A stretch of 64,000 bases of DNA. It comes from an uncultured delta proteobacterium (lineage in GTDB: Bacteria > Desulfobacterota > Syntrophorhabdia > Syntrophorhabdales > WCHB1-27). This document shows positions 11,731-58,529 of the stretch, piece after piece. Both the position numbers and the translations under genes were made by a program. The stretch lies in contig CAWGRP010000009.1 in NCBI GenBank assembly GCA_963825005.1, positions 24,719-88,718 on the forward strand. Direction: 5' to 3'. Below the pieces are notes generated by a model that worked only from the letters and a program-made list of their open reading frames with translations, had not been told where the DNA came from and made no database searches. The first letter of the stretch is position 1. Each line of letters begins with the position of its first letter.

Positions 11731-11935
11731 GTGTCGAGTGTCGAGTGTCGAGTGAGAGACACTGAATGAGTGTCGAGTGTCGCGTGTCGAGTGAGAGACA
11801 CTGAATGAGTGTCGAGGACGGTCTAATGGACCCAAACTGTTCAAGGGCACTCTGGCTCATCTAAGCTCTGTCCTCACTCGACACTCGACCCTTTATACTT
11901 TATACTTTTTCCCCTCGACACGCGACACTCGACAC
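11731..11935. repeat. Heptamer-word dyad element A (GTGTCGA / TCGACAC)
   Basis: The left arm is (GTGTCGA)n plus a duplicated GTGAGAGACACTGAATGA unit. A ~55-nt spacer follows, then the right arm CTCACTCGACACTCGAC...CTCGACACGCGACACTCGACAC. The stop codon of the kinase gene lies inside the right arm. Confidence 0.7.
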
Positions 11936-14900
11936 TTTTTCTATCCGTCCAGCGCCTTTCGTAACAGTGCGTCCCAACTCCGCTTGCGTCAAGGGCTTCA
12001 TGACAAAAGCCCGGATGCCGGCTTCCTTTACTGCTGCCCCATTAGTCATATGACTGAATCCGGTGGCAAGGACGATAGGGATATCAGGGCGAAGAGCCAC
12101 ACACGCTCTTGCCAGTTCCAGACCGGTCAACTCGGGCATGGTCTGATCAGTCACGATGAGGTCGAACCGGTTCGGATCATCGGTGAAAAGTTTCAGCGCT
12201 TCAACGCTGCTGTTTCTGGCAGTCACGGTATAGCCAAGCTCTTCGAGAAACTTCTGGCCGACCTCGGTCAGGGCTCTCTCATCGTCAACGAAGAGCACCC
12301 GCTCGTGCCCGGTAGGGACTGGTTCTTCAGCTTGGGCTTCTGTTCGGGGTTGTTCTGCAACTTTAGGCAGATAGATGGTGAAGGCAGAGCCTATCCCCGG
12401 TTGGCTCTCCACGGTGATGTACCCGTCGTGTTGCCGTATGATGCCTTGCGCCACGGAGAGGCCGAGTCCCGTTCCCTCGTCGGGCTTCTTGGTCGTAAAG
12501 AAAGGATCGAAAATTCTATTGAGCAGTTCAGGCGGTATACCAATGCCCGTGTCACGCACGACGAGCTTGATGTAGAACCCGGGCTTCATGCCGCCAGGTG
12601 TGCCTTCAGATGGCGCCATACTGAAATCACTCAGAGTAAGGTCGAGTGCGCCGCCCTTCTCTTTCATGGCGTGGGCAGCATTCGTGCAGAGGTTCATGAG
12701 GACCTGCTGCAATTGGACCGGATCGGCAAGTACGGGACCTGACTCGCTCTCGACATCGACCCCGATACTGATCGTCGTGGGAATCGAGGCTCTCAGGAAC
12801 CGGGCGGTCTCCTTTGCGAGGGTGCTCAACTGGAGCGGTTTCTTTTCCTGTTCCGTCTGACGGGAGAACGTGAGCATCTGCTTGATGAGTTCGCGGCCGC
12901 GGAGGCCTGCATCCATCACCATCTGGAGGTGACGCTCATCCGGGCTTCCCGCAGGGAGTTTGCTTTTTGTCAGCTCGGCAAAGCCCATCATGGCTGCAAG
13001 GATGTTGTTGAAGTCATGGGCGATGCCGCCCGTGAGCGTACCGAGGGCTTCCATCTTCTCTGCCTGGCGCATTCGAGCTTCGATCTGCTGCCGCTGGGTG
13101 ATGTCTGTGTCGACGCCGCGATAGCCGATGAGGTCGCCGGCTTCATCCAGCATCGGAGAGCCGCTCGTTTCCAGGTGCACCACGCGGCCGTCTTTGCGAA
13201 GGTTGGGATTGGGGAATGCCCGGAAGGGTTGCTTCGTGGCGAATACCTCGAACGCGCTTCTCTTCAGCTCTTCACGAACCTCCGGCGCGAACAGGTCGTA
13301 GAAGTGCATTTTACCGACCAGTTCGTCAGGCGCGTAGCCCAGAATCTTTTTAACGGACGGGCTCGTGTATGTGTAGAGGCCGTCCGCATCAATCTCCCAG
13401 ATGAAGTCGCCGATGTTCTCGGCCACCTGCCGGAATCGCTCCTCACTCTCGCGCAGCGCCGCCTCAGCACGCTTGCGCTCGGTGATGTTATCTATGAAGC
13501 CACTATAGAAGAGTGTCCGTCCATCCGGCCCGGGAGTGCGCCGGGCGCTGAGTAACGCCCAGAATTTTGTCCCGTCCTTGCGCTTGAGCTGGCACTCGAA
13601 TCCAAGGACAATATCCTGTGTCTCGAGCAGCTGGATATACCTCAGACGCTCGCTGGGGTCCACCCACACCTGATGTTCCAAGTCTGTGATTGATGATATG
13701 AACTCTCCCGGCGAATCATAACCCAACATCCTCACCAATGCCGGGTTTGCTGTCAAAGACTCCCCCTGGGGTGATGTTTCAAAAATACCTTCCAGCGCAT
13801 TATCGAAAATGTCGCGATACTTTGCTTCGGCTTTGCGCATGGCCTCTTCCGCCTTCATCTTCCGGCGTCTTTCGACGATAAGGATGACGATAAGAGCAGC
13901 CTCGGCGAGGCAAAGAAGGAGGACGCCGATGAGATAGTATCTATAGTCCCAGAGGGTGAATTCCCTGTTTATGATGATGCTGCCTTGGGGCAGTACGGCC
14001 TCGTTCACATTCCAGCGCCTGAGTTGTCGCCAGTCAAACATTAATGTCTTGCCGCTTCCAAGGGTAGTTACCGGTTTCGTCAGAACTATTTTCTTGTCCA
14101 GTATGTCGAGGGCCACATTTGCAGCGTATGCGCCTTCGGCCTCGAAGCTCAGCAGAGAGCCGCCAATGGAACCGTTCCCCATGACGGTATCGTAGAGGCA
14201 AAAAACAGGCGCGTTGGCAACCCTGGAGATGTCTTTCGCGACCTCCAGTGGGGTGAAGGTCCGGCCGGTTTTGTCTGAGAAGACATTAACGTAAATAACG
14301 ATTGAATAAGGCGGGAGGCTTGCAACCAATTGCAGGATTTCCTCAACAGTTCGATCCTTCGTGTACTGGAATTCCAGTTTGTCCTTCCAGGGCGAAAAAA
14401 GACGCTTGGCATCCTCTACATGCCTTTCATCAGCCGCTCCGCGTCCGCTGACAAAGACAACGTTCCGAGTTCGGGGAAACATCTTCAACGCTATTTCCAG
14501 GGTTCCTACGATGTCCTGGTTTTGTGGCCGTTGTAGGATCCGGCGCCCCAGTGTGTTCTTGGCTTCGATCAGTTCCGGCTCGATAACGGTCAAATAGGAC
14601 AGGACCGGCACATCGGGGAAGAGTCCCTTGCATTCTTCCAGGAGAAATTCAAGCGCCCACGTGTGTACGGTGACTATCAACCCGATCTGGTGCATCCCAT
14701 ATTTGTAGCGGAGCAGCTCGGCCAGTCTTTTACGATATTCGCCACTATTGTTGCGCTGCAGGTCCAGGTATTCAAGAAAAATGTCGTTGGTACTTATACC
14801 GCGCTCTCTCATAACGGACAAGAAGGCAGGTGTGGCTTTCTGATACGCTGGGAGTCCGTCTCCATACCCGTAAAGCACAAGAATCTGTTTTGCGAAATGC

Positions 14901-15046
14901 GGAGCAGTCTCTTGCTGCGAAAAGGCGGGCAGCGGAATGCTCAGTTGCAAAACAAGCAACGCCAGGAAAGCAAGCGGCAGCAAGCCGTGGTCCTGCCGAA
15001 TGGCGTTCAGTAGCCTACTTGAGTGCAGAGAGGTTTTGTCTTGCAT
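11900..15046 (-). CDS. Hybrid sensor histidine kinase (periplasmic ABC-substrate-binding-like sensor, PAS x2, HisKA, HATPase, REC)
   Basis: 1048 aa. N-terminal signal/TM plus a PBP-type domain, a TM segment, PAS repeats, H-box IAHDFNNIL, an ATPase with DTGIGI and GTGLGLS, and a C-terminal receiver VLFVDDE... Confidence 0.9.
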   Translation of the reverse strand: MQDKTSLHSSRLLNAIRQDHGLLPLAFLALLVLQLSIPLPAFSQQETAPHFAKQILVLYGYGDGLPAYQKATPAFLSVMRERGISTNDIFLEYLDLQRNNSGEYRKRLAELLRYKYGMHQIGLIVTVHTWALEFLLEECKGLFPDVPVLSYLTVIEPELIEAKNTLGRRILQRPQNQDIVGTLEIALKMFPRTRNVVFVSGRGAADERHVEDAKRLFSPWKDKLEFQYTKDRTVEEILQLVASLPPYSIVIYVNVFSDKTGRTFTPLEVAKDISRVANAPVFCLYDTVMGNGSIGGSLLSFEAEGAYAANVALDILDKKIVLTKPVTTLGSGKTLMFDWRQLRRWNVNEAVLPQGSIIINREFTLWDYRYYLIGVLLLCLAEAALIVILIVERRRKMKAEEAMRKAEAKYRDIFDNALEGIFETSPQGESLTANPALVRMLGYDSPGEFISSITDLEHQVWVDPSERLRYIQLLETQDIVLGFECQLKRKDGTKFWALLSARRTPGPDGRTLFYSGFIDNITERKRAEAALRESEERFRQVAENIGDFIWEIDADGLYTYTSPSVKKILGYAPDELVGKMHFYDLFAPEVREELKRSAFEVFATKQPFRAFPNPNLRKDGRVVHLETSGSPMLDEAGDLIGYRGVDTDITQRQQIEARMRQAEKMEALGTLTGGIAHDFNNILAAMMGFAELTKSKLPAGSPDERHLQMVMDAGLRGRELIKQMLTFSRQTEQEKKPLQLSTLAKETARFLRASIPTTISIGVDVESESGPVLADPVQLQQVLMNLCTNAAHAMKEKGGALDLTLSDFSMAPSEGTPGGMKPGFYIKLVVRDTGIGIPPELLNRIFDPFFTTKKPDEGTGLGLSVAQGIIRQHDGYITVESQPGIGSAFTIYLPKVAEQPRTEAQAEEPVPTGHERVLFVDDERALTEVGQKFLEELGYTVTARNSSVEALKLFTDDPNRFDLIVTDQTMPELTGLELARACVALRPDIPIVLATGFSHMTNGAAVKEAGIRAFVMKPLTQAELGRTVTKGAGRIEKVSSVACRGEKV

Positions 15047-15090
15047 CTGATTTCCCGATAAGGCTTCGCAGTCTCAGATGACAATCGCGT

Positions 15091-15227
15091 CGATTATTAC
15101 CCCGGCAATTAAATAGTTTGTCATGCCGGACTTGATCCGCCATCCAGACAGGGACTGGATTCCGGCTTTCGCCGGAATGACGGCCGAAAAAGTGTAGGTA
15201 TTATTTAGTTGCCGTATTAATAATTAC
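15091..15227. repeat. Nested palindromic (REP/MITE-like) element
   Basis: An outer ~24-nt inverted repeat (ATTATTACCCCGGCAATTAAATA / TATTTAGTTGCCGTATTAATAAT) encloses GTCATGCCGG...ATCCAG-N7-CTGGATTCCGGCTTTCGCCGGAATGAC. There is a single copy in this window. Confidence 0.45.
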
Positions 15228-15380
15228 TTTAGCTCCAGTTTACATGATCGAGAGCTGCAGGTCCAGATTTCCCAATAGTGTTCGACGAGCTTGCGCGGCC
15301 TTCAGCCGTCATATAGTGGCCTTCGACCCTGCCCTCAATCCGACGCCCCATGCTGTGGCGGTTGTTCAAAGTTCATAACC

Positions 15381-15427
15381 ACAATAACAAACATTGAGCG
15401 GCGTTGTCTGTAGGACCAAAGTCCGAT
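15381..15427 (-). promoter_or_regulatory. Palindrome-fused promoter facing the histidine kinase gene
   Basis: Palindrome TGTAGGACCAAAGTCCGATG (15408-15427). On the minus strand: -35 CAGACA (15405-15410), 18-nt spacer, -10 TATTGT (15381-15386). This would give a ~330-nt leader. Confidence 0.35.
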
Positions 15428-15489
15428 GGGTCGCTTCAGTCCTCGTGTCATCAGCCAATAGATGTCACACGTCGCGATAGATTGACATG

Positions 15490-16161: not shown

Positions 16162-16170
16162 GGAACCCCT

Positions 16171-16500
16171 GGACGCGGTGACTGGGAGAGAGGAAGACAC
16201 GGAGACACGGAGACCAAGCCGTGCAAACCGATAGGGAGACGCGGAGAAACGGGGAGAGGGAGAAAAGTACGGATAGCATGCACTCCCAGTTGACGGAAAT
16301 AGCGGATGTTACTCATCCTTCAGTTCTCTCCCTATCTCTCCGCGTCACCGTGTCTCCGCATCTTCCTCTCTCCGTGTCTTATTTGTTACTCGCCGTGTCT
16401 CCCCGTCTCCCTGTCTCCTTGTCTCCGCGTCACCGTGTCTCCGCGTCACCGTGTCTCCGCGTCTTATTTGTTACTCGCCGTGTCTTATTTGTTACTCGCC
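16171..16500. repeat. Heptamer/octamer-word dyad element B (GGAGACG / CGTCTCC)
   Basis: The left arm is GGAGACACGGAGAC...GGGAGACGCGGAGAAACGGGGAGAGGGAGAA, followed by a ~55-nt spacer. The right arm is CTCTCCGCGTCACCGTGTCTCCGC... plus three copies of GTCTTATTTGTTACTCGCC. Confidence 0.7.
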
Positions 16501-17909
16501 ACCGGCGGTCCCGTCATCTTATCCGCTTCGATTACCCAGCCGCCCCCGATTGCCTTGTAAAGATTTACATAACTGACCAGCGCCGCCGCCTGCGTCTGTG
16601 CAGCGCTCAGCTCTGCAGGGAAGAGTTGCGTCTCTGCGTAAAGAACTTCGAGGTAGCTCGTATAGCCACCGTTGTATTTGAGCCACGAGAGGCGTGAGTA
16701 ATCCTTGTAAGCGACGACGCGCTTCTGCTCGGCTGCGAGTTGCTCTCCCAGTTTGTCCCGTGACACGAGCGAGTTCTCAACGTCGGCGAACGCATTCTGG
16801 ATCGCCAGTTCGTAAGCCGAGAGCGCGGCCCTCTGCGCTGCCTCAGCCTGATTTACCTGGCCTTTGATGGCGCCAAAGGTAAAGATCGGTCCGGTGATGG
16901 AACCGCCGTAGTTCCAGGTGTTGCTCGGCCCCTTGAAGAGGTTTTCCAGCTCGGTGCTCGACTTGCCGTAACTACCGGTAAGCGATATGCTCGGATAGTA
17001 AAGCGCTTTAGCGGCGCCGATCTGGGCATTTGCCGCGATCAGGTTCTGCTCGGCCTGCCGGAGGTCGGGGCGTTGTTCGAGCAGCTGTGACGGCAAGCCC
17101 GCAGGGACCGCGGGCATCGCGAGATCAGCGAGCGTGCACCCCCGGGCAATGGGTCCGGGGTTACGGCCGAGCAGAATCGAGATGGCATTTTCCGTCGCCA
17201 CGATCTGGATCTCGATCGCCGGGATGGCCGCTGCCGCGGTTTCGTACTGAGACTGCGCCTGCGCTACAGTCATCTGGGAAACCTGACCGTACTTATGCTG
17301 CTTCTCGAAGAGCGTTACAGAATCTGCGTACGTCTTGAGCGTACGTTTTGAAATTGCCAACTGTTCGTCGAATGCGCGCAGCTGGATGTAAGAAGCTGCA
17401 ACTCCGGAAACGAGGGAAAGGATGACCCCGCGCCGCGCCTCGTCGGTGGCGAGCAGGTTGGCCTGAGCTGCCTCGGATTGGCGCCTGATGCGGCCCCAGA
17501 GGTCTATCTCCCAGGTGGCACCTCCCAGGATCTGATGGATATTGAACGGGTTCTCGTTCGGTGCTTGGAGCGCGTTGTTCCGTGAAACGCGTTGGCGGAT
17601 AGCATTCGCCTCGTAACCCACCTGCGGAAAAAGAGCCGAGCGCGTTGTCATGAGGATGCCTGCAGCCTGCTCCACGTTCGCAGCGGCTATTTTTACATTC
17701 TTGTTGTTTGCGAGCGACTCGGCAATGAGAGAATCGAGCACCGGGTCGTTGAACTGTTTCCACCATTCGGTGTTGGCCGTCTCTGCCACGTCTTTCGGCT
17801 CGTACCGGAAAGACTGCGGCGTGTCGATCAAGGGACGCTTGTAGTCTGGGCCGACCATGCAGCCGGCAACACAGATAAGCATTATTGAGGCGATCAGTGT
17901 TCGGCGCAT
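16485..17909 (-). CDS. RND efflux outer-membrane factor lipoprotein (NodT/OprM family)
   Basis: Lipobox VAGC followed by MVGPDYKRP, the hallmark N-terminus of NodT-family OMFs. 474 aa. Confidence 0.9.
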   Translation of the reverse strand: MRRTLIASIMLICVAGCMVGPDYKRPLIDTPQSFRYEPKDVAETANTEWWKQFNDPVLDSLIAESLANNKNVKIAAANVEQAAGILMTTRSALFPQVGYEANAIRQRVSRNNALQAPNENPFNIHQILGGATWEIDLWGRIRRQSEAAQANLLATDEARRGVILSLVSGVAASYIQLRAFDEQLAISKRTLKTYADSVTLFEKQHKYGQVSQMTVAQAQSQYETAAAAIPAIEIQIVATENAISILLGRNPGPIARGCTLADLAMPAVPAGLPSQLLEQRPDLRQAEQNLIAANAQIGAAKALYYPSISLTGSYGKSSTELENLFKGPSNTWNYGGSITGPIFTFGAIKGQVNQAEAAQRAALSAYELAIQNAFADVENSLVSRDKLGEQLAAEQKRVVAYKDYSRLSWLKYNGGYTSYLEVLYAETQLFPAELSAAQTQAAALVSYVNLYKAIGGGWVIEADKMTGPPVASNK

Positions 17910-17910
17910 G

Positions 17911-20900
17911 TTAGTGACCTCCCTCTATGACAGGTGCCGGTCCCTCCGCGGCGCCACCGCCGTGAGGTCCTGCTGGTGACGGTGTGACAGGAGACTTCGC
18001 TTTCTTCTTCTTGGCGGATCGTTCTGCAAGGGTGTCGAAGTAGTAGAAGAAGAGAGGTACGTAGAGCATGGCAAGAGTAGTCTCGCCCAACATGCCGCCC
18101 ATGATTCCGGTTCCTATTGAATGGCGGGCGTTGGCACCCGCGCCCGTCGCAATCGCCAGCGGGAGTACGCCGAATATGAAGGCCAGCGACGTCATAACGA
18201 TCGGCCGCAGCCGCTCTTCGCCTGCCTGTATCGTCGCGTCCATGACCGACAGCCCCTGGTGGCGCAGGTCCACGGCAAAAGCGACCCTGAGCACAGCATT
18301 CTTCGCCCCGAGGCCGATCAGCACCAGAAGGCCTATCTGGAAGTAGACATCGTTGTTAAGACCGCGCAGCCAGTTAAAGATAAGTGCGCCGAGGATGCCG
18401 AATGGCACCGCTGTCAGCACGGCGCCCGGCAGGATCCACGATTCGAACTGGGCAGCGAGCACGAGGAACACGATGATGATGCCGAATATAAAGGCGTTTG
18501 CCGAGGTTCCCCCGGATTTCTTTTCCTCGTAAGCCATGCCTGACCAGGCGACATCATACCCGGAGGGGAGCACCTCTTTTGCGACCTCTTCCATTACCTT
18601 GATTGCAGTACCCGAGCTGAAGCCGGCCGCGGCGTTACCGGTGATCTGTGCTGCCGGGAACCCGTTGAAATGCGGCACCAGGTCAGGCCCGGTCACGTAC
18701 TTGGTGGTCACCAGGGCGGAGAGAGGAACCATTTTGCCGTCTTGAGACCTCGTGTAGAGCTTGGTAATGTCCGAAGGGGTCCGGCGGTATGGAGCATCCG
18801 ATTGGAGGATGACATTCCAGACACGGCTGTATTCGTTGTACTGGCTCACCTGGATGGAGCCGAACTGAGCTTGCAGGGCATTGTACACATCGGATACCGG
18901 CACTCCGAGAAGCACCGTTTTTGAGCGGTCGACTTCCGCCCGCAGCTGTTGCGATGCTGCCCGGAACGTGGTGTTCAGGCCGGTTAACTCCGGCCGTGTG
19001 CGGGCCTTGGCCAGGAACTGCTGTGTAATCTCATTCAGGCGCGCAGGGTCCCCGGCTGCTTTATCCTGAATCCAGAACTCAAAGCCGCCCGTAGTGCCTA
19101 TACCCATGATAGCCGGTGGCAATATCGGGATGAAGCGACCCGTGTCTATCGTGCGCGCTCCGGCAGCGATCTCTTTCATTACGGCCTCGGCGTTTTCCTT
19201 CTCGGCGCGCTTCTTGGAAGAATAGCGCTCCTCGAAGTCTTTGAACGTTACAAAAAAGGTCGCGACGTTTGGTTTGTACTGGGCGTCAATTATGCTGTAG
19301 CCGTTGATGATCGTCCGGTTTGCCACCGCCTCATTTTTGGCGTACAGCTCGTCTATGCGGCTTGAGGTCTGAACCGTGCGGTTCAGACTGGCAGAGTCGG
19401 GCATGATGAGCTGCCCCATCATGTAACCCTGGTCCTCATTGGGCACAAAGGCTGTCGGGATTATCTTGAAGAGGTGCACGAGCGCATAGATGAGAAAGGC
19501 AAGGATGATAAGGGCGATGGTCACCCGCTTGATCATGAGCACGACCAGGTCCCCGAAGCCCGTGGTGAATCGCGCGAAACCCCGGTTGAACCAGGCGAAG
19601 AACCGGTTAACATACCCCATGATACCCGTCTGTTTGGGCGTGCTGTGTTTCAGCAGGAGACCGCACATCGCGGGGCTCAAGGTGAGCGCCACGAATCCGG
19701 AGATGGCGACCGAGATGACGATGGTGATGGCGAACTGCTTATAAAGCTGCCCGGTGGTGCCGGGAAGGAAAGCCGCGGGAATAAAGACCGAAGCCATGAC
19801 GAGCACGACGGAAATGAGCGCGCCGCTGATCTGCTCCATGGCCATGGTCGTGGCCTCTTTGACAGATTTGTGCTCCTTGGACATTATTCGCTCAACGTTC
19901 TCCACCACGACAATGGCATCGTCGACCACCATTCCTATGGCAAGCACCAGACCGAAGAGTGTGAGCAGGTTGATGGAAAAGCCGAGCGCGAGCATGCCGG
20001 CGAACGTGCCTATCAACGAAACGAAGACAGCAACAATACAGATGATCGTGGAACGGAAACTCTGCAGGAAAAAGTAGACGACCAGTACGACGAGAATGAT
20101 AGCTTCAAAGAGAGTGTGGATCACCTCGTCGATAGAGAGGCGCACAAAATCGGTGGTGTCAAGCGCTACGATGTACTCGATGCCCGCGGGCATTGTTGAC
20201 TTCAGGTCCTCCATCACCTTGCGGACCTGTTTGGAGACGTCGAGACCGTTCGCGCCCGGCTGCTGGTAGACGATGATAGGGGTTGCGGGCGCCCCGTTCA
20301 GGATGTTTTGGTCGATGTACTGCCTGCGGCCGGTCTCTGCACGGGCAACATCCTTCACGCGGACGATGGCGCTGCCGTCAGGGTTGGCGCGCAGTATGAT
20401 GTCTTCGTACTCTGAAGGCTGCACGAACGGCTGTTGCGTTATAACCGGGAAAGGTCAACTGCACGTCCTTGGCACCCGGTTGCTGACCTACCTGGCCCGC
20501 ACCGTAAAGGGCATTCTGTTTCGCAATCGCATTCTGGATATCGGTCGTAGTGATCGACATGGCGGCCATCTTGTCCGGATTCATCCAGACGCGCATCGCC
20601 TGGTCAGGAACGCCGAAGATCTGTGCCTGGCCCGCGCCGTTCACCCGCTTGATCGCATCGAGTATATAAATGTTGGTATAGTTGGTGACGTACTCGGCGC
20701 TGTACCGGCCGTCCTTGTTGAAGACCGAAATGATCATCAGAGGAGTAGCCGACTTTTTCTGCACCGATACGCCATACTGTATGACCGCTTCCGGAAGCTG
20801 CGGCATGGCAAGGTTGACGCGGTTCTGCACCCACACCTGGGCCATGTCGGGATCCGTGTTCAGCGTGAAATAGACGGTTATCGTCATCTGCCCCGTGTTG

Positions 20901-21154
20901 GAACTGGTCGATGTCATGTAGAGCATGTTGTCGACGCCGTTGATCTGCGCCTCGATGGGTGCTGCTACCGAGTCGCCGACTGTCTTGGAGTCAGCCCCGG
21001 GATAGGTGGTCGTCACCTGCACCGTGACCGGCGTGATCGTCGGGTACTGCTCTATCGGCAGGGCTTTCATCGCGACCAGTCCGCCGATGACAATGATTAA
21101 CGAGACGACCGTAGCGAAAATGGGCCGGTCTATGAAGAACTTGGAGAACGTCAT
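17911..21154 (-). pseudogene. RND multidrug efflux permease (AcrB/HAE1 family), frame broken once
   Basis: ORFs 20378..21154 (N-terminal MTFSKFFIDRPIFATV) and 17911..20424 are colinear with AcrB-type pumps. One extra C/G in the CCCGG run near 20446 restores ...LTFPVITQQPFVQPSEYEDI... Confidence 0.85.
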
Positions 21155-21169
21155 AGTTCGGTCCCTCCC

Positions 21170-22411
21170 TTATCTATCGCCCAAGGCGGGTTCTTTTTTT
21201 TCAGCAGCAGCTTTCGATGGGGCAGCGGCCGCAGCGGCTTGTGCAGCGGAGGCTTGTTCTTTGATCTTGACAGGCTCCCCGGGCCGCAACGCGAGGCCAC
21301 CGTCAATGACCACCACGTCCCCTGCGTTTAGTCCCTCGGTGATGAACCAGTTGTTTCCCATCCAGTCGCCGACCACCACCGGCCTCTGCTCTGCCTTGGC
21401 CTCTTTGCTCACCACCCAGACGAAGTGGCCCTTGCTCCCTTGCTGTACCGCCCGTTGCGGCACGAGAATCCCGTTCGGGCGCCTGGCGCCCAGGAGTTGT
21501 GCGCGCACGAACTGGCCGGGCCGCAGCGTCCCGTTCGGGTTTGCAAAGGTTGCACGCACCAGGAACGTGCCTGTTTGCGGATTATATTCCGCGTCGGCAA
21601 ACGTAATCTTTCCTCTTTGTGGGTATTTCGAACCGTCAGCAAGCGTGATGTCAACTTCGTAGGTGCCTTCTTTAGGCAAGATAATCTGACCCAGGGCTGC
21701 CTGACCACGGTACTTCAGTACGTCGTTCTCGGATACGCTGAAGTTGACCCAGATCGGATCGACCTGTGCTACGTAGGTAAGAAGGCTATTGGCCTGACTG
21801 ATGTAAGCCCCCTCCTGCACGCGCGCGTAACTCGAAAGCCCGGTCACGGGAGAACTTATCGTGGTATAACCAAGGTTGAGCTTCGCCTGATCAACGTTAG
21901 CCTTTGCCGTTTCTACGGCTGCTGCTGCAGCCTGTTCCTGTCCGGTGGCATCGTCAAGGTCCTTCTGCGACAACGCGTCCTGTTCGACCAGAGGCTTTAC
22001 CCTGGCAAGGTTCGCACGTGCGGTAGTGAGGCGGGCCTGCTGTTGAGCCAGCGCGCCCTGTTCCGCTTCAAGTTGCGCCTGGAAGGGCTTGGGGTCCATC
22101 TTGAACATGACATCGCCGGCATGGACAAGGCTTCCCTCGTTGTACGTCCGCTTGTCAAGGAAGGCATTGACGCGCGCGCGGATCTCCACCTGGTGCGAGC
22201 TTTCCGTGCGACCTACAAACTCGACCGCTATGGGCGTGTCCTTAGGTTCGATCTTCATAGCGGTCACTTCCGCGGGTGGCCGTGCCTGGGGAGCTTCTTT
22301 TTTCCCGCAGCCAGGAAGCGCTACGAGCGCGAAGAAAGCGGTTAGAAGCACCACCAAGCCCCAGGATTTGATCTCTCGATTTCCGTTCAACGTCAGATAT
22401 CTTTTTTCCAT
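21170..22411 (-). CDS. RND efflux membrane-fusion (periplasmic adaptor) protein
   Basis: Lipobox LPGC, coiled-coil hairpin and beta-barrel regions typical of AcrA/MexA, and an Ala-rich tail. The start was moved to MEKRYL. Confidence 0.85.
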   Translation of the reverse strand: MEKRYLTLNGNREIKSWGLVVLLTAFFALVALPGCGKKEAPQARPPAEVTAMKIEPKDTPIAVEFVGRTESSHQVEIRARVNAFLDKRTYNEGSLVHAGDVMFKMDPKPFQAQLEAEQGALAQQQARLTTARANLARVKPLVEQDALSQKDLDDATGQEQAAAAAVETAKANVDQAKLNLGYTTISSPVTGLSSYARVQEGAYISQANSLLTYVAQVDPIWVNFSVSENDVLKYRGQAALGQIILPKEGTYEVDITLADGSKYPQRGKITFADAEYNPQTGTFLVRATFANPNGTLRPGQFVRAQLLGARRPNGILVPQRAVQQGSKGHFVWVVSKEAKAEQRPVVVGDWMGNNWFITEGLNAGDVVVIDGGLALRPGEPVKIKEQASAAQAAAAAAPSKAAAEKKEPALGDR

Positions 22412-22499
22412 GCTCGCCACCTCTGGATTAGACACTATTTCGCCCGATGGGCTCTTTACGACAAAAAATGGATATCGGCATGATACCAGATTTCATTCT

Positions 22500-22547
22500 A
22501 ATGTAGAAGAAAAGAAAGAATCGTGTCTATGGGACCTTGGTCCTATA
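22500..22547 (-). promoter_or_regulatory. Palindrome-fused promoter of the RND efflux operon
   Basis: Palindrome TATGGGACCTTGGTCCTATA (22528-22547). On the minus strand: -35 TAGACA (22524-22529), 18-nt spacer, -10 TACATT (22500-22505). Confidence 0.5.
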
Positions 22548-22554
22548 CCGGAAA

Positions 22555-22743
22555 CCAGTTGCCAGTGGCCAGTAAGAAAATAAAACAGTGGCCAGTAAAT
22601 GCAAAAAAGAGTTACCAGTGGCCAGTGAGGGCGGAAGCTACTTCTACATACTGGCTACTGGGCACTGGCAACTGGCTACTGAGTTGTCCTGGCTACTGAC
22701 AACTGGCACTATACTGGCCACTTCTCTTTACTGGCTACTGGCC
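22555..22743. repeat. Heptamer-word dyad element C (CCAGTGG / CCACTGG, CTACTGG)
   Basis: Left arm CCAGTTGCCAGTGGCCAGTAAG...CAGTGGCCAGTAA...TTACCAGTGGCCAGTGA, a short spacer, then right arm ACTGGCTACTGGGCACTGGCAACTGGCTACTG...ACTGGCTACTGGCC. It overlaps the aor stop codon. Confidence 0.7.
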
Positions 22744-24471
22744 CAGTTCCCTGATAGCCTTTGCATACTCTTTCGTGAGAGCATTGAGGTAGTCGTGGTC
22801 CACGGTCCCCTTCGCGGTTGTTACCTCATAGAAACGTTTCGGGATCGTCACCTCTTCCGGTTTGTAACCGGTCGCAAGACGCATTTTCCACCGGAGCTGC
22901 TGAATGTTCCGACCGACAGGCCCGAGGTTATCCGCAATTGAGCCGTATCCGACGCTCTTGAGGCACGCTGTCAGCATTTCATCCGTATAGACTCCGCGCG
23001 CAAAGAGACAGGAGACCATGGAGGTGAGGAGCGCTCTTCCCTGCTCGTCCTTGACCAGAAAATCTACTGCCTTAGACACATCTTTGCCCTTCTCCTTCTG
23101 ATCAAAAGAGTAGCCGCCGCTGTCCAGATGCGAGTGGCGGAAGCCCAGCGCCTGGGAAGCAAAGTAGACCTCACCTGTCGCATAACCCGCCATCTCCTGG
23201 CCGAGAACGCAGGCGTACTCCTTTCCGCCGTAATGCTCCGCCGCCTTGAGCGTGCCCTGTGCGAGGAGAGTATAGAACTCGTTCGTGGACCTGCCCAGAT
23301 GCTCCATCGCCTGTTTATAGCCCTCGGTGTCGCCGAAGGAGAGGCGGACGATAGTCTCCTTTTCCGAAATGACCCCCTTCTCCGTGGCCTCAGTCGCCCA
23401 GGCCAGGGCAACGCCCGCTGACATCACGTCGAGCCCCACCTTTTCAGAGATGTCAATGATCGCGAGCACGTGAAAAGGGTCGGTAACCGAAAGCATCGCC
23501 CCCACGGCAAATATCGGCTCGTGATCATAGGAAACCTGCCGGTAGATGTAGCGGTGTTCCTTGGTGTACCGTTCACGCACGAACCCTATGTGGATGCAAC
23601 CCACCGGACAGCCTGCGCAGGCCGCATTTCGAAGCAGGACATCGTCCGCGAATTTTTCACCTGAGATGCTGCTCATAGCCGGGTCGGTCGTCCGCTGGAG
23701 GTTACGGATGGGCAGCATCTTCGTTTCGTTCAGCACGGCCATGTTGATCGGCGTGCCGATGTCGTGATACTTCATCATGTCCTTACCGGTAACCTTGGTA
23801 TAGGTCTCCTGAAAGACCTTCGGGTACTCTTTCGAATCCGGAAGCGAAAACGATGCGTCACCCTCGATTAAGATAGCCTTGAGATTCTTGCGTCCCATGA
23901 CCGCTCCTCCGCCAAGCCTTCCGAAATGGCGGTACGTGTCGGCGTTGATGGCTGCCATGGCAGAGCCGTTCTCGCCGGCCGGCCCGATGCGCATGATGGT
24001 CCGGTGACCTGAGCCACGCTTGACGAGGCCGCGGAGCATTCTTCCCGACTCAAAAACGTCCTTTCCCCAGACAAAGGGGAGTTCCTTTATCACCAGGTTT
24101 TGTGAGGCAACGCCGATACAGGAAGGGTTTGCAGCCTTGCCGACAATAACCAGCGCATCGAGATCGGCAAATCGAAGGGCCAGGGCCGATCGGCCGCCGG
24201 CGTGACTTTCAGCGTACTGGTCGTGATAGGGCGATTTGAAAGCACAGACGGTCTTGCTCATGAGCGGGAAATAGCCGGTGAGAGGACCGATAGCGAAGAT
24301 GAGCGGCTGATCGGGATCATCCCATGGTTTGTCCGGATGGCCGTATTTACTGAATAACAGGGCCGCGAGTCCGCTGCCACCGACAACCGTATCACGCCCA
24401 TCGAGTGTTACCACGTTGCCTCGACCGGTAGCGAGGTTAACGAGCAAAATTCTAAAGTTGTCTCTGATCAT
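22735..24471 (-). CDS. aor: Aldehyde:ferredoxin oxidoreductase family (tungstopterin) enzyme
   Basis: 578 aa with AOR N-terminal and catalytic domains colinear with the family, including the Cys-rich region NAACAGCPVGCIH. Confidence 0.8.
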   Translation of the reverse strand: MIRDNFRILLVNLATGRGNVVTLDGRDTVVGGSGLAALLFSKYGHPDKPWDDPDQPLIFAIGPLTGYFPLMSKTVCAFKSPYHDQYAESHAGGRSALALRFADLDALVIVGKAANPSCIGVASQNLVIKELPFVWGKDVFESGRMLRGLVKRGSGHRTIMRIGPAGENGSAMAAINADTYRHFGRLGGGAVMGRKNLKAILIEGDASFSLPDSKEYPKVFQETYTKVTGKDMMKYHDIGTPINMAVLNETKMLPIRNLQRTTDPAMSSISGEKFADDVLLRNAACAGCPVGCIHIGFVRERYTKEHRYIYRQVSYDHEPIFAVGAMLSVTDPFHVLAIIDISEKVGLDVMSAGVALAWATEATEKGVISEKETIVRLSFGDTEGYKQAMEHLGRSTNEFYTLLAQGTLKAAEHYGGKEYACVLGQEMAGYATGEVYFASQALGFRHSHLDSGGYSFDQKEKGKDVSKAVDFLVKDEQGRALLTSMVSCLFARGVYTDEMLTACLKSVGYGSIADNLGPVGRNIQQLRWKMRLATGYKPEEVTIPKRFYEVTTAKGTVDHDYLNALTKEYAKAIRELGQ

Positions 24472-24908: not shown

Positions 24909-24980
24909 TCTCCTTCTCTTTCCATTGCTACTGTCAATTCCAAGCCTTTCTATTCATCACCAACTTCAAAAGAAAACACC

Positions 24981-25214
24981 TTTTCGTCGCAGATAAGAGC
25001 GGATAAAAGCTGTGATGAACGCAGATAATTTATCTTTGACCGCCTGTGTGATAAAGCCGCACAGCCGGTCAACCCAGCACCTCCGGTGGGGTAAATTTCA
25101 CTCGCGGAGCGACGGAGTGTGGACAGCATTGACGTTGTATCACAATGCTGCACACGGTCAAACTCATCTGTGTACATCTCTCTTGGCTCTTATCTGCGTT
25201 AATCTGCGATAAAA
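24981..25214 (+). repeat. R240 structured inverted-repeat element, copy 1 (MITE-like)
   Basis: Terminal inverted repeat TTTTCGTCGCAGATAAGAGC / GCTCTTATCTGCGTTAATCTGCGATAAAA. Internal hairpins GACCGCCTGTG...CACAGCCGGTC and GTGGACAGCATTG...CAATGCTG. Confidence 0.8.
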
Positions 25215-25230
25215 TTCTTCATTAGCTAAT

Positions 25231-26864
<1,634 letters not shown>

Positions 26865-27636: not shown

Positions 27637-27666
27637 CTCCTTGCCTCCTAATGATCGAACACAGCC

Positions 27667-27903
27667 TTTTTATCGCCGATAAAAGCGGATAAAAGCTATG
27701 ATGAACGCTGATAGTTTATCTTTGACCGCCTGTGCGATAAAGCGGCACAGCCGGTCAACCTGGCAGCACCTCCGGTGGGGTGAGACTTGCGCGGGAGCGC
27801 TGAAGGTGTGGACTGCATTGCCGTTGTATCACAATGCTGTCCACCGGTATACTCATCTGCGTACATCTCTCTTTGCCTTTATCTGCGTGCATCTGCGATA
27901 AAA
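27667..27903 (+). repeat. R240 element, copy 3
   Basis: Aligns end to end with copies 1, 2 and 6. Hairpin GTGGACTGCATTG-N11-CAATGCTGTCCAC. Confidence 0.8.
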
Positions 27904-27939
27904 TTCTGTCCTTTGTCTGATTTCACCATCAGCATCCTC

Positions 27940-30268: not shown

Positions 30269-30309
30269 TTCGACCGTCGATCCTCGCCGCCACACTTCTG
30301 TCTTCCACC

Positions 30310-30380
30310 GGTCACTGATAACTGATAACTGGTCACTGGTCACTGGTCACTGGTCACTGATAACTGGTCACTGATCACTC
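30310..30380. repeat. Heptamer-word array D (GGTCACT / GATAACT), single arm
   Basis: GGTCACTGATAACTGATAACTGGTCACTGGTCACTGGTCACTGGTCACTGATAACTGGTCACTGATCACTC. I saw no complementary arm. Confidence 0.7.
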
Positions 30381-44164: not shown

Positions 44165-44272
44165 AGTAATCAGTCATCAGTAATCAGTTAACAGTTGCCA
44201 GTGATCAGTAAGAGCAATCGACACCGATTACCGATTACTGATAACTGATCACTCTCTTTGTTCACTGATCAC
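44165..44272. repeat. Heptamer-word dyad element E (CAGTRAT / ATYACTG)
   Basis: AGTAATCAGTCATCAGTAATCAGTTAACAGTTGCCAGTGATCAGTAAGAG, a spacer, then GATTACCGATTACTGATAACTGATCACTC...CACTGATCAC. Confidence 0.7.
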
Positions 44273-45929
44273 TTTTTTTCGTCGCCAGATCCTGGCTCAA
44301 TATTTTTTTGGCCTCGTCTACAATCGTCTGCAGGTGCGCTTCATCCTTGAAGCTCTCTGCGTAGAGCTTGTATATGTTCTCTGTTCCGGACGGCCTGGCT
44401 GCAAACCAGCCGCTGTCTGTCACGACTTTCAAACCACCAATAGGCGCTCCATTGCCTGGAGCAGATGAGAGTTTCGCCAGGATCGGCTCGCCCGCTAATT
44501 GCTTCGCCGTTACGTCCTCTGGAGAGAGGTTTGCCAATCGCGCCTTCTGCTCGGGTGTTGCCGGTGTATCAATCCTTGTGTAATACGGCGTTCCCAGCCG
44601 AGCCGTAATCTCCTTATAGAGCTCACCAGGGTCACGACCGGTCCTGGCCGTGATCTCGGCTGCCAGCAGATTCATGATGAGGCCGTCCTTGTCAGTCGCC
44701 CAGACGCTGCCGTCTTTTCTCAGGAAACTTGCTCCTGCACTTTCTTCGCCTCCGAAACAGTACGATCCGTCAAACAACCCGTCCACAAACCACTTGAAAC
44801 CAACAGGCACTTCTGACAAGGTCCGCCCGAGGCTCTTCACAACACGGTCGATAAGGCTACTGCTCACCAGCGTCTTGCCGATAGCCGCTTTCACGGGCCA
44901 TTCGGGACGGTGAGCGAGCAGGTAATTTATTGCTACGGCAAGATAATGGTTGGGATTCAGAAGGCCCATTGAACGGGTGACGATGCCGTGCCGGTCTGCG
45001 TCGGTGTCGTTTGCGAAAGCGATCTGAAACTGATCTTTTAGCCCCACCAGCCGGGCCATGGCATATGGGCTCGAGCAATCCATCCTGATCTTGCCGTCGT
45101 GATCGACGGTCATAAAGGCGAACTGCGGATCCACCTTGGAATTGACAACCGTGATGTCGAGACCATAGATGGCCCTGATCGGCTCCCAGTAGTGGACCGA
45201 GGCCCCGCCGAGCGGATCGCAGCCGATTTTGATGGCTGCAGATCGTATGGCATCGATATCGATGACATTGGACAGGTCCTTTACGTAAGGCATCATAAAA
45301 TCTTGCTGGTGTGTCGTCTTGCCCTTCAAAGCAGAGTCGTAAGGGATGCGCTTGACCTCGCGGTTGCCGGAGCGCAACAGATCATTGGCGCGGTCCTGGA
45401 TCCATCGCGTCACGTGGGTATCGGCAGGCCCGCCGTTGGGCGGATTGTATTTGAAACCGCCGTCCTCGGGCGGGTTGTGCGACGGCGTTACCACGATACC
45501 GTCGGCCAGGCCGTTTTTCCGGCCGCGGTTATACGTGAGGATGGCGTGAGAGACGACCGGCGTGGGGGTGAAGCCATCGTCCTTCTGGATCATCGTTTCG
45601 ACGCCATTCGCTGCAAGCACTTCGAGCGCCGTACGCTGGGCAGGCCCGGACAATCCATGCGTGTCCTTGCCCAAGAAAAGCGGTCCATCGGTCTTCTGGG
45701 CGAGCCGGTAGTCGCAAATCGCCTGCGTGGTGGCGAGAATGTGCGCTTCGTTAAAAGTGCCGCGTAATGACGAGCCGCGGTGTCCGCTGGTACCGAAGCT
45801 CACCAGTTGCAGAGGATCGCCTGTATCGGGCTGACGCTCATAATATTCCCGTTCGAGCCGGGCGAGGTCAACGAGCAGTTCCTTTGGCGCCGGCTTACCG
45901 GCAAGAGGGGATAGTGCCATATCAGTCAC
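44262..45929 (-). CDS. pgm: Phosphoglucomutase (alpha-D-glucose-phosphate specific)
   Basis: Active-site loop [15 protein letters not shown]. 555 aa, colinear with Pgm. Confidence 0.9.
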
Positions 45930-45939: not shown

Positions 45940-46125
45940 CAGTGTCGAGTGTCAGGTGTCGGGTGAAGATTCAGAAAGAACAACCGCTCGGTATTTCCAG
46001 AAGCCAGACGGTCTATTTACCCAATACACTTTACGTTCCTCCTTCATCATCTCACTCTCGTTATTTCTTATTTTTTCCCTCGACACTCGACCCTCGACAC
46101 TTTCTCACTTGTCACTCGTCACTCC
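45940..46125. repeat. Heptamer-word dyad element F (GTGTCGA / TCGACAC)
   Basis: CAGTGTCGAGTGTCAGGTGTCGGGTG, a ~110-nt spacer, then CCCTCGACACTCGACCCTCGACACTTTCTCACTTGTCACTCGTCACTCC. The glgP stop lies inside the right arm. Confidence 0.7.
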
Positions 46126-55245: not shown

Positions 55246-55292
55246 ATTCTCACAAAACCCTGCGGGGATGTCCATAGGACCTTGGTCTTATA
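55246..55292 (-). promoter_or_regulatory. Palindrome-fused promoter of the Ech hydrogenase operon
   Basis: Palindrome CATAGGACCTTGGTCTTATA (55273-55292). On the minus strand: -35 TGGACA (55269-55274), 17-nt spacer, extended -10 TGT-GAGAAT (55246-55254). Confidence 0.5.
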
Positions 55293-55476
55293 GTGAGAGG
55301 GAAGAGGTGAGTGAAGAGAAGTGTCGAGTGGGACGCGGAGAAAGGGAGACAGGAAGAAAGGGAGAAAGAGGGGACTTACCGAGTCTTTTCGCACTGTCAC
55401 CGTGTCACTCCGTCTCCGCGTCTCCGCGTCCCCGTGTCTCTGTCTCTCCGCGTGTCTCCGTGTCTCTTCGACTTAC
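55293..55476. repeat. Heptamer-word dyad element G (GGAGA-rich / TCTCC-rich)
   Basis: GTGAGAGGGAAGAGGTGAGTGAAGAGAAGTGTCGAGTGGGACGCGGAGAAAGGGAGACAGG..., a spacer, then CACCGTGTCACTCCGTCTCCGCGTCTCCGCGTCCCCGTGTCTCTGTCTCTCCGCG... Confidence 0.7.
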
Positions 55477-55486
55477 TAATTGCCTA

Positions 55487-55891
55487 TCAACCGGGTGTTA
55501 CTTCCCTTACCTCCGATAGCCAGTCGATCGCCTCCTCAAAGCTCGTGAACACCTTATAGGAAAATCCCTGAAGATGCAGAGATGCTTCAAACTGTTTGGC
55601 TATGGAGAGGCGTTTTTCATCCGCCGGTACCACGTTTGCGATTTTGCCTTTAAAAACGGACCCGTAACGTGCCATCTCCACTGCCAGCCGCAACACGGTA
55701 CCCATGTTGCTCTCTCCTGACATGCGTGTTTCTCTCAGATCAACGAGGATATTGTGGTCAGCGTAAAAAGAAGCGGCCACGGCAAGGTCGCGGACTATCT
55801 GTACTGAACGGTCGAAATCTATCTCTCCTGAATCATTCAGCCGAATAAAATCTTTAACTTTGTAAATCTTGATGTCGGAAGCCATATTCAC
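55487..55891 (-). CDS. Hypothetical 134-aa protein, tandem paralog 1 (possibly STAS/SpoIIAA-like fold)
   Basis: MNMASDIKIYKVKDF...ILVDLRET...KIANVVPADEKRLSIAKQFEAS...KVFTSFEEAIDWL. The fold guess rests only on the pattern and is weak. Confidence 0.6.
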   Translation of the reverse strand: MNMASDIKIYKVKDFIRLNDSGEIDFDRSVQIVRDLAVAASFYADHNILVDLRETRMSGESNMGTVLRLAVEMARYGSVFKGKIANVVPADEKRLSIAKQFEASLHLQGFSYKVFTSFEEAIDWLSEVREVTPG

Positions 55892-55906
55892 CTACCCTTT
55901 TCAGAT

Positions 55907-56012
55907 CAGTGTCGAGTGTCGAGTAAACTCAAATAAAGTTACCAGTGATCAGTGAGCAGCGAGAAACCACCGAGCAGGTGCTGATGACTCATAACTGATT
56001 ACTGGTCACTGG
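55907..56012. repeat. Heptamer-word dyad element H
   Basis: CAGTGTCGAGTGTCGAG plus GTTACCAGTGATCAGTGAGCAG, a spacer, then CTGATGACTCATAACTGATTACTGGTCACTGG. Confidence 0.65.
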
Positions 56013-56410
56013 GGTATCACTTCCGTTACCTCCGATAGCCAGTCGATCGCGTCCTCGAAGCTCGTGAACACCTTATAGGTAAATCCCTGGAGATTCAGGG
56101 ACGCTTCAAATTGTTTGGCTATGGAGAGTCGTTTTTCATCCGCCGGAACCACGTTTGCTATTTTTCCTTTGAAAGCGGCCCCGTAGCGCACCATCTCCAC
56201 TGCCAGACGCAATATGTCCCCCATGCTACCCTCAACGTGAACGGTCGTCTCTCTCAGGTCAACAAGGATATTATGGCCCGCATGAAAAGAGGCTGCTACG
56301 GCAAGGTCATGGATGATCTGTATGGAACGGTCGAGGTCTATTTCTCCTGACTCGTTCAGCCGGACGAAGTCTTTAACTTTGTAAATCTTGATGTCGGAAG
56401 CCATATTCAC
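56006..56410 (-). CDS. Hypothetical 134-aa protein, tandem paralog 2
   Basis: About 25 differences from paralog 1 over 134 aa (by eye). They are concentrated at residues 56-66 (RMSGESNMGTV versus TVHVEGSMGDI). Confidence 0.6.
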   Translation of the reverse strand: MNMASDIKIYKVKDFVRLNESGEIDLDRSIQIIHDLAVAASFHAGHNILVDLRETTVHVEGSMGDILRLAVEMVRYGAAFKGKIANVVPADEKRLSIAKQFEASLNLQGFTYKVFTSFEDAIDWLSEVTEVIPQ

Positions 56411-56419
56411 CTACCTTAT

Positions 56420-56572
56420 GAGTGTCGGGTGTCGAGTGTCGAGGTCGAGTGACAGATAAAAAATTACCCAGCCTTCGCTCACCGCATTGCCCTATCTCCC
56501 GCTCTCCGCGTCTCCGTCTCTCACCTTTCGTTCGTCCTTCGACACTCGACACTTGTTACTTGTCACTATCTC
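56420..56572. repeat. Heptamer-word dyad element I (GTGTCGA / TCGACAC)
   Basis: GAGTGTCGGGTGTCGAGTGTCGAGGTCGAGTGACAG, a spacer containing CTCTCCGCGTCTCCGTCTCTC, then CCTTCGACACTCGACACTTGTTACTTGTCAC. Confidence 0.7.
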
Positions 56573-56617
56573 TCCGAAAGCTACACCCATAATCCGTGTC
56601 TCCTTGTCGTCGTCTTT

Positions 56618-58375: not shown

Positions 58376-58421
58376 GGTGATTCTCCGAGGTCTTCATTAT
58401 ATAGTGGCAAGGGTCAAAAAA

Positions 58422-58529
58422 AGACGCGGAGAAAGGGAGACGCGGGGAGTCTTCCTTCACCCCATCCCAGTCACTCCGTGTCGACTTATTCTGGTAATCA
58501 TCGGTCAGTAACCCGTGGCCAGTGGCCGG
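58422..58529. repeat. Mixed heptamer-word fragments J
   Basis: AGACGCGGAGAAAGGGAGACGCGGGGA, CAGTCACTCCGTGTCGAC and CCGTGGCCAGTGGCCGG. Three word types are present but there is no clear dyad. Confidence 0.4.

Follow-up and report, generated by a model that had tools for sequence, protein, structure and literature searches.

Introduction

Tandem heptamer repeats have long been known in bacteria and have no accepted function. Those of cyanobacteria, the STRR heptamers, have been known for a long time and have the consensus words CCCCAGT, TTGGTCA and CAACAGT. Abundant extragenic hairpins of another kind, the REP, BIME and REPIN sequences, often lie just past stop codons within operons, and REPs are defined sequences of 20-40 nt maintained by RAYT transposases. 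In eukaryotes, foldback transposons have long inverted arms of tandem short repeats around a variable centre. Here we describe ten intergenic elements, labelled A to J, that are built from arrays of 7-8-nt words and lie in a 64,000-nt stretch of contig CAWGRP010000009.1 from an uncultured delta proteobacterium (positions 24,719 to 88,718; hereafter the window). The elements were compared with the same gaps in relatives and with arrays in a wider sample, and together the window and its relatives narrow the mechanisms that could account for such repeats.

The closest described systems are also paired. In Geobacter metallireducens, tandem 7-9-nt repeats of 3-5 units fall into three classes and occur as opposite-strand pairs at variable distance, and the paired repeats were named putative binding sites of global regulators (IHF/HU; Aklujkar et al. 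2009, PMC2700814). Intergenic GGGAATC heptamers make up 70-75 convergent pairs per genome in two genomes of Xanthomonas. Their G-rich strand is preferentially the sense strand when within 50 bp past a stop codon, or the antisense strand when within 50 bp upstream of an open reading frame (ORF); these repeats are transcribed and, at conserved loci, differ in length and sequence from one close species to another (Rehm et al. 2015, PMC4692102). The same report found no function for them, proposed a role for G-quadruplexes, and gives convergent pairs and the strand rule for the GGGAATC/GGGGAYT repeats of Xanthomonas and Nostoc. In Beggiatoaceae, cyanobacteria and Bacteroidetes, direct repeats of TAACTGA immediately precede start codons (MacGregor 2015, PMC4679880).

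An earlier note on this DNA, made from its sequence alone, held that paired arrays had not been described outside cyanobacteria. The reports on G. metallireducens (PMC2700814) and Xanthomonas (PMC4692102) refute this: the kind of repeat, a long heptamer simple-sequence repeat frequently arranged in convergent pairs, is already known, and the elements of the window are further members of it. Three points were not found in the papers of Aklujkar (2009), Rehm (2015) and MacGregor (2015), namely a strand rule obeyed without G-tracts, its independence of how the flanking genes are oriented, and a change of word in both arms of a pair whose site persists.

Results

The window has a G+C content of about 55%, its genes lie almost all on the minus strand, and the best named matches of its proteins are in Syntrophorhabdus metagenome-assembled genomes (MAGs). 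Tandem Repeats Finder (TRF) returned 16 period-7 and 10 period-8 rows, together covering 742 nt, whereas 20 block shuffles averaged 0.85 period-7 rows, 1.2 period-8 rows and a coverage of 37 nt, showing that the arrays are head-to-tail repeats of a short unit (5-11 nt) beyond chance. Nearly all of the strong arrays fall in the ten places singled out in the earlier note, and tandem repeats were found at all ten. Inverted 7-mer pairs spaced 20-350 nt apart numbered 1952 versus 1371 ± 41 after shuffling, 14 standard deviations above expectation, and 315 of the 1952 lie within the ten elements, which amount to 1640 nt. By element, these pairs number 115 in A, 101 in B, 37 in C, 18 in I, 17 in E, 16 in G, 10 in F, one in H, and none in D or J. 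Seven elements are true dyads with complementary arms (A, B, C, E, F, G and I), H is a marginal dyad, and D and J are arrays of a single orientation without a dyad; the claim of paired arms at each place thus stands for seven elements, weakly for H and not for J, while D had been described correctly as one-armed. The words reported for each locus were likewise found there, except that the unit of B and G is an octamer, GGAGACRC. The window has four or more word families, most of them lacking G3 tracts, and arms are often mosaics of two families (G, H and I). The arrays are not an assembly artefact, as the earlier note had allowed, because independent ENA and JGI assemblies of relatives show arrays in the same gaps.

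The relatives comprise five syntenic contigs with aor protein identities of 88-95% (loci L200/L201, L202, L203 and L204/L205). Arrays occupy the gap of element D in L202 and L203, and the gaps of elements B and C in every relative read (L200, L202, L203 and L204), while the rest of the syntenic stretches of L202 and L203 gave no period-7/8 array in TRF. In the aor-MFP gap (element C), the sequence between the stop codon and a conserved palindrome, TATAGGACyAArGTCCCAT, contains CCAGTGG/CCACTGG in the window, GTGTCGA/TCGACAC in L200, GGAGACR/YGTCTCC in L202, a CAGTGAT/GTGAC mixture in L203, and a remnant with unrelated sequence in L204. In the gap between the OMF and K+ channel genes (element B), the word is GGAGACR in the window and L202, GTGTCGA in L200 and L204, and CAGTGAY facing GTYACTG in L203. 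In both gaps, therefore, the two arms switch word jointly between relatives. Copy number and sequence vary among these close relatives at B, C and D, as they do in simple-sequence repeats, with element D having about 10 copies in the window and 4.6 and 3.6 in the relatives. L200 and L204 have arms that are 93-100% identical at gap B but unalignable centres, and the outer edges of that gap are common to the window, L202 and L203 while the interiors differ. The last 15 nt of the OMF gene together with its stop codon (CTTATTTGTTACTCGCC) are present three times in the right arm of element B, the stop being part of a 21-nt unit repeated there, and because the gene end is triplicated we conclude that this arm was enlarged by duplication in place.

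The gaps persist, their content differs, and the boundaries of gaps B and C, which are filled in all five genomes compared, showed no target-site duplication; we therefore read the changes as fast turnover in situ rather than transposition. The sequences argue for long-lived sites with rapid internal remodelling and not for movement into new sites. The history of the flanks (16485-24471) is itself mosaic, since aor is nearest to L204 (92% nucleotide identity) and the OMF gene to L203 (92%) and L202 (91%), with L200 just 83% identical, a pattern that implies recombination between lineages within one operon. Because the flanking genes are mosaic, some of the word swaps cover more divergence than the identity of aor implies.

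These comparisons bear on the idea that the elements are mobile, that is, foldback- or MITE-like units (MITE, a miniature transposable element with inverted repeats) whose terminal inverted repeats consist of transposase-binding words and which insert beside stop codons. GTGTCGA arms and linkers are near-identical at non-orthologous gaps (A and F of the window versus gaps B and C of L200), a fixed inward polarity is expected of a terminal inverted repeat, and arrays in a Saprospiraceae MAG (L012, L035 and L066) flank a conserved core palindrome. However, the compared boundaries lack target-site duplications, the same gaps are filled and the same gaps are array-free in all relatives, the OMF gene end duplicated inside an arm shows in-place growth, and a G>C bias over dozens of unrelated words would be unexpected for arbitrary transposase sites. 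Spacers are also not homologous within a family: elements of one word family have arms and linkers such as GTGTCGAGGGGAAAAAG in common but not spacers, and sequence comparison found no conserved core among the elements of the window. Internal sequence conserved between copies, the mark of MITEs and foldback elements, was thus seen in the separate Saprospiraceae family, while likeness in the window is confined to arms and linkers. Mobility is in our judgement a most improbable explanation. As a separate observation, the spacers of A (11817-11835) and F (46005-46024) have on the minus strand a common motif, TTGGGTnnAT(T)AGACCGTC, that is confined to these two places in the window and absent from L200-L205, and which could be a protein site or a remnant of common origin.

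The replacement of words bears equally on the possibility that the arrays are DNA sites for multimerising proteins, of the IHF/HU or ribbon-helix-helix type with one unit per dimer, each word having its own protein. Plasmid pSM19035 has a parS centromere that reportedly consists of contiguous heptad arrays; the heptads, WATCACW, are targets of omega, a ribbon-helix-helix protein, and the words of D, E and H contain ATCAC. In a Nostoc study, deletion of heptamer repeats upstream of recO reportedly changed the effects of LexA and NtcA on promoter activity in E. coli reporters, which hints at a repeat-dependent effect, and its authors speculated on a repeat-binding partner; for the paired arrays of G. 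metallireducens, IHF/HU-type regulators were putatively proposed (PMC2700814). Against this, the word at a given gap differs between close relatives, which makes locus-specific regulation hard to reconcile, four or more word families in 64 kb would demand several dedicated proteins, and no candidate protein was identified. We consider sites of this kind decidedly unlikely.

Strand polarity was analyzed in a wider sample of about 2 Mb, which consisted of the loci of a (GTGTCGA)3 scan of one genome per species (at least 119 loci in many phyla) and 80 metagenome loci around pgm homologues; the statistics that follow are among the matches listed. The sample holds 408 period-7/8 arrays; for 79 of these a reverse-complement partner lies downstream within 350 nt, and for 68 one lies upstream. 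The 5' arm has more G than C in 24 of 27 independent dyads that are built on words other than the search word and come from many phyla (p = 5e-5). This polarity holds in every type of gap, with ratios of 36:2 in co-directional, 8:1 in convergent and 12:0 in divergent gaps. Restated by strand, the G/purine-rich strand runs 5' to 3' toward the centre of the dyad on both strands, and where the words have a palindromic core (TGATCA+N, TGGCCA+N), N alone distinguishes the arms, being G on the 5' side and C on the 3' side. When an array begins within 40 nt past a stop codon, its sense strand is the G-rich one in a ratio of 75:25, while unpaired arrays in co-directional gaps showed no strand bias (37 versus 33). 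All ten elements of the window, D and J included, obey the rule of a G-rich sense strand after a stop or a G-rich antisense strand before an ORF. Because convergent pairs and the rule hold for words unable to form G-quadruplexes, the published explanation of the rule is removed.

The same observations bear on a neutral origin, in which slippage favours 7-nt units, quasi-palindrome template switching pairs the arms, and the elements occupy any tolerant intergenic space and do nothing. Word, copy number and centre turn over fast, several hairpins have decayed, there is no link to gene function, and triple repeats of two control heptamers occur at 11 and 3 loci in viral contigs versus 4 for GTGTCGA. 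Heptamer excess has also been ascribed to polymerase slippage, according to a passage of PMC4679880 that quotes Mrazek et al. (2007). Pure mutation, however, does not predict a fixed G-rich-5' polarity in all gap types, nor does it predict that sites persist while their content is replaced, and on balance we hold a wholly neutral origin to be possible but doubtful.

The polarity could alternatively stem from a cycle at the level of DNA, in which the centre breaks, the ends are resected, and repair proceeds from sister or ectopic arrays. According to two reports, SbcCD cuts palindromes and repair by RecBCD and Chi follows (PMC3315005, PMC5041463). Speculatively, the 3' tails left after an SbcCD-type cut at the centre and resection would be the G-rich words, in a Chi-like active orientation. 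If true, this one cycle would account for centre turnover with conserved arms, copy-number change, shared vocabulary, persistence of sites and polarity, and heptamer palindromes would be self-renewing fragile sites. We regard such a cycle as unlikely to be the cause.

Three further candidates were set aside. A RecA preference for GT-rich DNA was rejected as the cause of polarity since 5' arms outside the GTGTCGA family are purine-rich with A>T and not GT-rich, and thermodynamic asymmetry between the two arm orders was rejected by reasoning, the nearest-neighbour terms being equal by symmetry. The idea that GTGTCGA is a special word across phyla was dropped because the two control heptamers, which were composition-matched, were about equally frequent (11 and 3 loci versus 4) in what was a viral collection and not a genome scan.

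The wider sample also yielded arrays of other forms. In an uncultured bacterium, MFD03726.bin.2.4 (L016, L018, L022, L049, L054 and L080), dyads are compact hairpins with loops of 10-20 nt, and copies in the 5' arm far exceed those in the 3' arm. In the Saprospiraceae MAG, the palindrome flanked by GTGTCGA arrays is GTACGCTTGGTTAT...ATGACCAAGCGTAC, and in L066 the unit of core plus array occurs three times in tandem. The Phycisphaeraceae contig L040 contains at 4982-5028 (TTTAGGG)n followed by its complement, the plant-type telomere heptamer placed head to head, an arrangement that probably arose by chance, the range of words being wide.

Within the window, every dyad begins, on the gene strand, at a stop codon or a few bases beyond it. 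The stops of the kinase, OMF, aor and glgP genes were said earlier to lie inside an arm, and all four do, in or at the first word, as do those of pgm and of one twin gene, while D, I and G start later, at 6, 14 and about 25 nt past the stop, respectively. Elements A, B, E, F, H and I end directly before the ribosome-binding site of the next gene and leave no room for a promoter. Only C and G lead into an operator-like palindrome fused to a promoter-like site, in agreement with what the earlier note had proposed for these two elements. As identified by Pfam, the neighbouring genes encode a sigma-54 response regulator, a PAS kinase, a K+ channel, OMF, RND pump and MFP proteins, and aor, and they include the DHOdh-like, GNAT, ROK, pgm and glgP genes and genes for an Mrp/Nuo-type antiporter subunit and an MscS-type channel.

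In element A, the left arm (11730..11816 on the plus strand; the 3' arm for minus-strand genes) consists of (GTGTCGA)n blocks in a 39-nt higher-order repeat (TRF periods 7 and 39) and stops 14 nt short of the response-regulator start codon, and the right arm (11875..11936 on the plus strand; the 5' arm in gene sense) is (TCGACAC)n by TRF and sequence and contains the kinase stop codon (11900-11902). Both arms have a 22-nt stretch in common that includes the variant unit GTGTCGC. Element B has GGAGACR-type octamers in its left arm (16185..16267, plus strand) and (YGTCTCCG)n in its right arm (16330..16500, plus strand; TRF period 8/16/21), while in element C, CCAGTGG-type words (22555..22631, plus strand) face CYACTGG-type words (22645..22743, plus strand), the first of which holds the aor stop codon (22735-22737). 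Element D (30306..30379), of one orientation, has about 10 copies (10-10.6 by TRF) of CACTGGT/CACTGAT/AACTGAT, is G-rich on the gene strand, and begins 6 nt past the stop of the DHOdh-like gene.

In element E (44165..44272), CAGTNAT words form the left arm (44165-44211) and ATNACTG words the right arm (44223-44272); its first word contains the pgm stop codon, and AGTGATCAGTGA (44262-44275) there encodes S-D-Q-stop. The same AGTGATCAGTGA, again encoding S-D-Q-stop, ends the OMF gene in L203 (18014-18034), so that array words give C-terminal residues. In element F (45940..46125), the left arm of GTGTCRG words (45940-45966) is separated by a spacer of about 110 nt from a right arm of TCGACAC/TCGTCAC (46079-46124), and the glgP stop codon is within the first word. 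The left arm of element G (55320..55466) is a mosaic in which GTGTCGA precedes GGAGAAAG/GGAGACAG, and its right arm (55396-55466) is made of YGTCTCCG units. Element H (55907..56012) consists of an unpartnered GTGTCGA block of 2.4 copies followed by CCAGTGATCAGTGAG facing CTGATTACTGGTCACTGG; its pairing is restricted to a weak CAGTGAY/RTCACTG match, the TCGACAC block being without a partner. In element I (56420..56572), GTGTCGR words (56420-56451) make up the left arm and TCGACAC words (56539-56572) the right arm, with a CGTCTCC block (56499-56522) between them. Element J (58422..58529) comprises two unrelated arrays of the GGAGACG and CCAGTGG types and is not a dyad; both are G-rich on the plus strand and hence C-rich, of the 3'-arm type, on the strand of the downstream MscS-type gene.

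The earlier observation that ORF calls run through several arrays holds for the longest ORFs, but the extensions are artefactual. Using gene calls in a relative and the first methionine before conserved sequence, we placed the starts of the response regulator (MSDHMKIL), the K+ channel (MIRKAMRF) and the GNAT protein (MNRDDIV) all downstream of the arrays. A coding potential of the arrays was accordingly rejected, the extension being a product of choosing the longest ORF. For annotation, this means that arrays lead to over-extended ORF calls, and that they provide the stops and last residues of several proteins.

Several features of the neighbouring sequence were recorded. The operator-like palindrome is TATAGGACCAAGGTCCCATA at 22528-22547, upstream of the MFP/RND/OMF operon, and TATAAGACCAAGGTCCTATG at 55273-55292, upstream of the Mrp/Nuo-type antiporter gene; it overlaps a -35-like hexamer and is conserved in all relatives (about 2716-2735 in L200, with equivalents in L202, L203 and L204). 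Because TATAGGACCAAGGTCCCATA/TATAAGACCAAGGTCCTATG is common to both upstream regions, these sequences suggest that one repressor may govern the operon and the antiporter unit. Two tandem 132-aa paralogues (55487-55885 and 56006-56404; MASDIKIYKVKDF...) have no Pfam match, and each follows an element with a TCGACAC end and an identical GGTAGGTGAATATG start context. The RND pump is encoded by two ORFs (17911-20424 and 20378-21154) that overlap at 20378-20424, and the pyruvate kinase ORF (28982-29371) lacks the N-terminal 106 profile positions; orthologues of both are intact in L200 and L203, and the split pump and short kinase are either frameshifted pseudogenes or the result of indel errors in assembly. 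The gap between the K+ channel and kinase genes (15047-15489) measures 443 nt in the window versus 7 nt in L200 and is without heptamer arrays; a hairpin in it, GTCATTCCGGCGAAAGCCGGAATCCAG (about 15150-15185), looks like a different small repeat.

RNA folding was analyzed against dinucleotide shuffles for three elements, giving -105 kcal/mol (z -7.9) for A, -86 kcal/mol (z -6.5) for C and -142 kcal/mol (z -6.2) for B. Under a uniform protocol with mononucleotide shuffles, z was -10.8 for A, -7.4 for C, -6.0 for B and -5.5 for E, and -2.7, -2.5 and -2.0 for F, G and I, respectively. Seven of nine array-free control gaps have |z| of at most 1.1, the other two being 24909-25363 (z -2.5) and 27637-27939 (z -4.0). 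The stem-loops are predicted to be very stable on either strand. In relatives, folding of the orthologous gaps is weak in L204 at gap C (z -0.5), in L202 at gap B (-0.9), and in L202 and L203 at gap C (-2.1 each). The suggestion that the dyad is kept rather than the sequence is thus borne out insofar as both arms swap word together across relatives, but the strength of the hairpin is not uniformly kept. The control gap 27637-27939, which lies between the pyruvate kinase and histidine-phosphatase genes, is array-free and has no Rfam match, yet folds better than its shuffles.

The earlier note had proposed that the elements are intrinsic terminators or insulators between transcription units. In favour of such a role, C and G separate a stop codon from an operator-promoter region, hairpin stability is very high, and a T-rich run follows the 3' arm of A. 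A scan for the stem/loop/T-run pattern, however, matched none of the elements on the gene strand, and no Rfam match at gathering score was found in the window. The stems measure 30-170 nt with large interior loops, versus the short GC-rich stem of 5-20 bp, 3-8-nt loop and U-tract of a terminator. Elements A, B, E, F, H and I moreover adjoin the next ribosome-binding site within operon-like pairs (kinase then regulator; glgP, pgm and ROK), where full termination would silence the downstream gene. The proposal is not supported on these counts, and we judge it highly improbable.

Discussion

Our preferred reading, to which we give somewhat better than even credence, is that the elements, as simple-sequence palindromes that form hairpins, evolve in place and probably have a post-transcriptional effect. 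A unit of 7-8 nt would be amplified in tandem right after the stop of one gene, and its reverse complement right before the ribosome-binding site or promoter of the next. The arrays would then lengthen and shorten in place by replication slippage, as suggested by the OMF gene end caught in a repeat unit, while inverted duplication or template switching between the arms would keep them complementary. Ectopic conversion among arrays with a common unit may act in addition, and would explain the small vocabulary of words in each genome.

As to function, the transcribed stem-loop may act post-transcriptionally by uncoupling neighbouring cistrons, a part of the reading that we hold tentatively, at somewhat under even credence, and model on REP and BIME sequences. 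A stem-loop extending from stop codon to ribosome-binding site could serve as a barrier to 3' exonucleases or as an RNase III substrate, and would not be a canonical terminator. Two constraints might set its polarity: C-rich, Rho-accessible RNA would be avoided after stops, and purine-rich, Shine-Dalgarno-like arrays would be avoided before starts, so that together they would lead to one arm order in all three gap types. The functional part is inferred throughout.

Several points weigh against this reading. Elements H, J and D fold like their mononucleotide shuffles (z -1.1, 0.0 and +1.6, respectively), and the weak or absent hairpins of D, H, J and several orthologous gaps fit birth and decay as well as they fit selection. 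Arm alignment scores, compared as a possible sign of locus-specific co-evolution of the arms, are no higher within a locus than across loci of the same word family. Ectopic conversion is indicated solely by shared words and linkers of the GTGTCGAGGGGAAAAAG kind. The account of polarity by two constraints is post hoc, and a cause at the level of DNA fits its independence of gene orientation equally well.

Among known systems, the architecture resembles that of the cyanobacterial STRR and TAACTGA repeats insofar as intergenic heptamer arrays adjoin starts or overlap the ends of ORFs, but the elements are not STRRs, the host being Syntrophorhabdus-like and the words differing from the STRR consensus. 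The GATAACT unit of D and E becomes TAACTGA on rotation, and forward TAACTGA lies just upstream of starts as do the 3' arms described here, whereas the Beggiatoaceae sets are direct repeats with a single inverted case reported (PMC4679880). The elements share with REP, BIME and REPIN sequences their place as extragenic hairpins behind stops, the likeness on which the proposed mRNA-stabilising or uncoupling role is modelled, and differ from REPs in having stems made of tandem arrays without a conserved core in this genome. Foldback transposons have long inverted arms of tandem short repeats as well but are mobile, with transposase-related ends and target duplications, neither of which was seen in the elements of the window.

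The two closest systems remain those with paired arrays. G. metallireducens is likewise an anaerobe with paired opposite-strand arrays of 7-9-nt units, and its class 2 consensus, TCTCCGTS[Y], equals the octamer of B and G (PMC2700814), whose right arms are (YGTCTCCG)n and whose left arms are the complement; its sites differ in being short (3-5 units), in being read as IHF/HU sites rather than hairpins or simple-sequence repeats, and in having been described without a comparison of orthologous gaps. With the Xanthomonas repeats, 7 of the 10 elements of the window have in common that there is one array per strand with the G-rich strands converging. The Xanthomonas and Nostoc genomes each have one dominant G-tract word and a preference for four units (PMC4692102), whereas GTGTCGA, CCAGTGG, CAGTGAT and GGAGACRC are without regular G3 tracts and occur in 2 to about 20 copies. 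What sets the window apart from these genomes is the presence of at least four word families, mosaic arms, arms as long as 170 nt, and words that are replaced at orthologous gaps.

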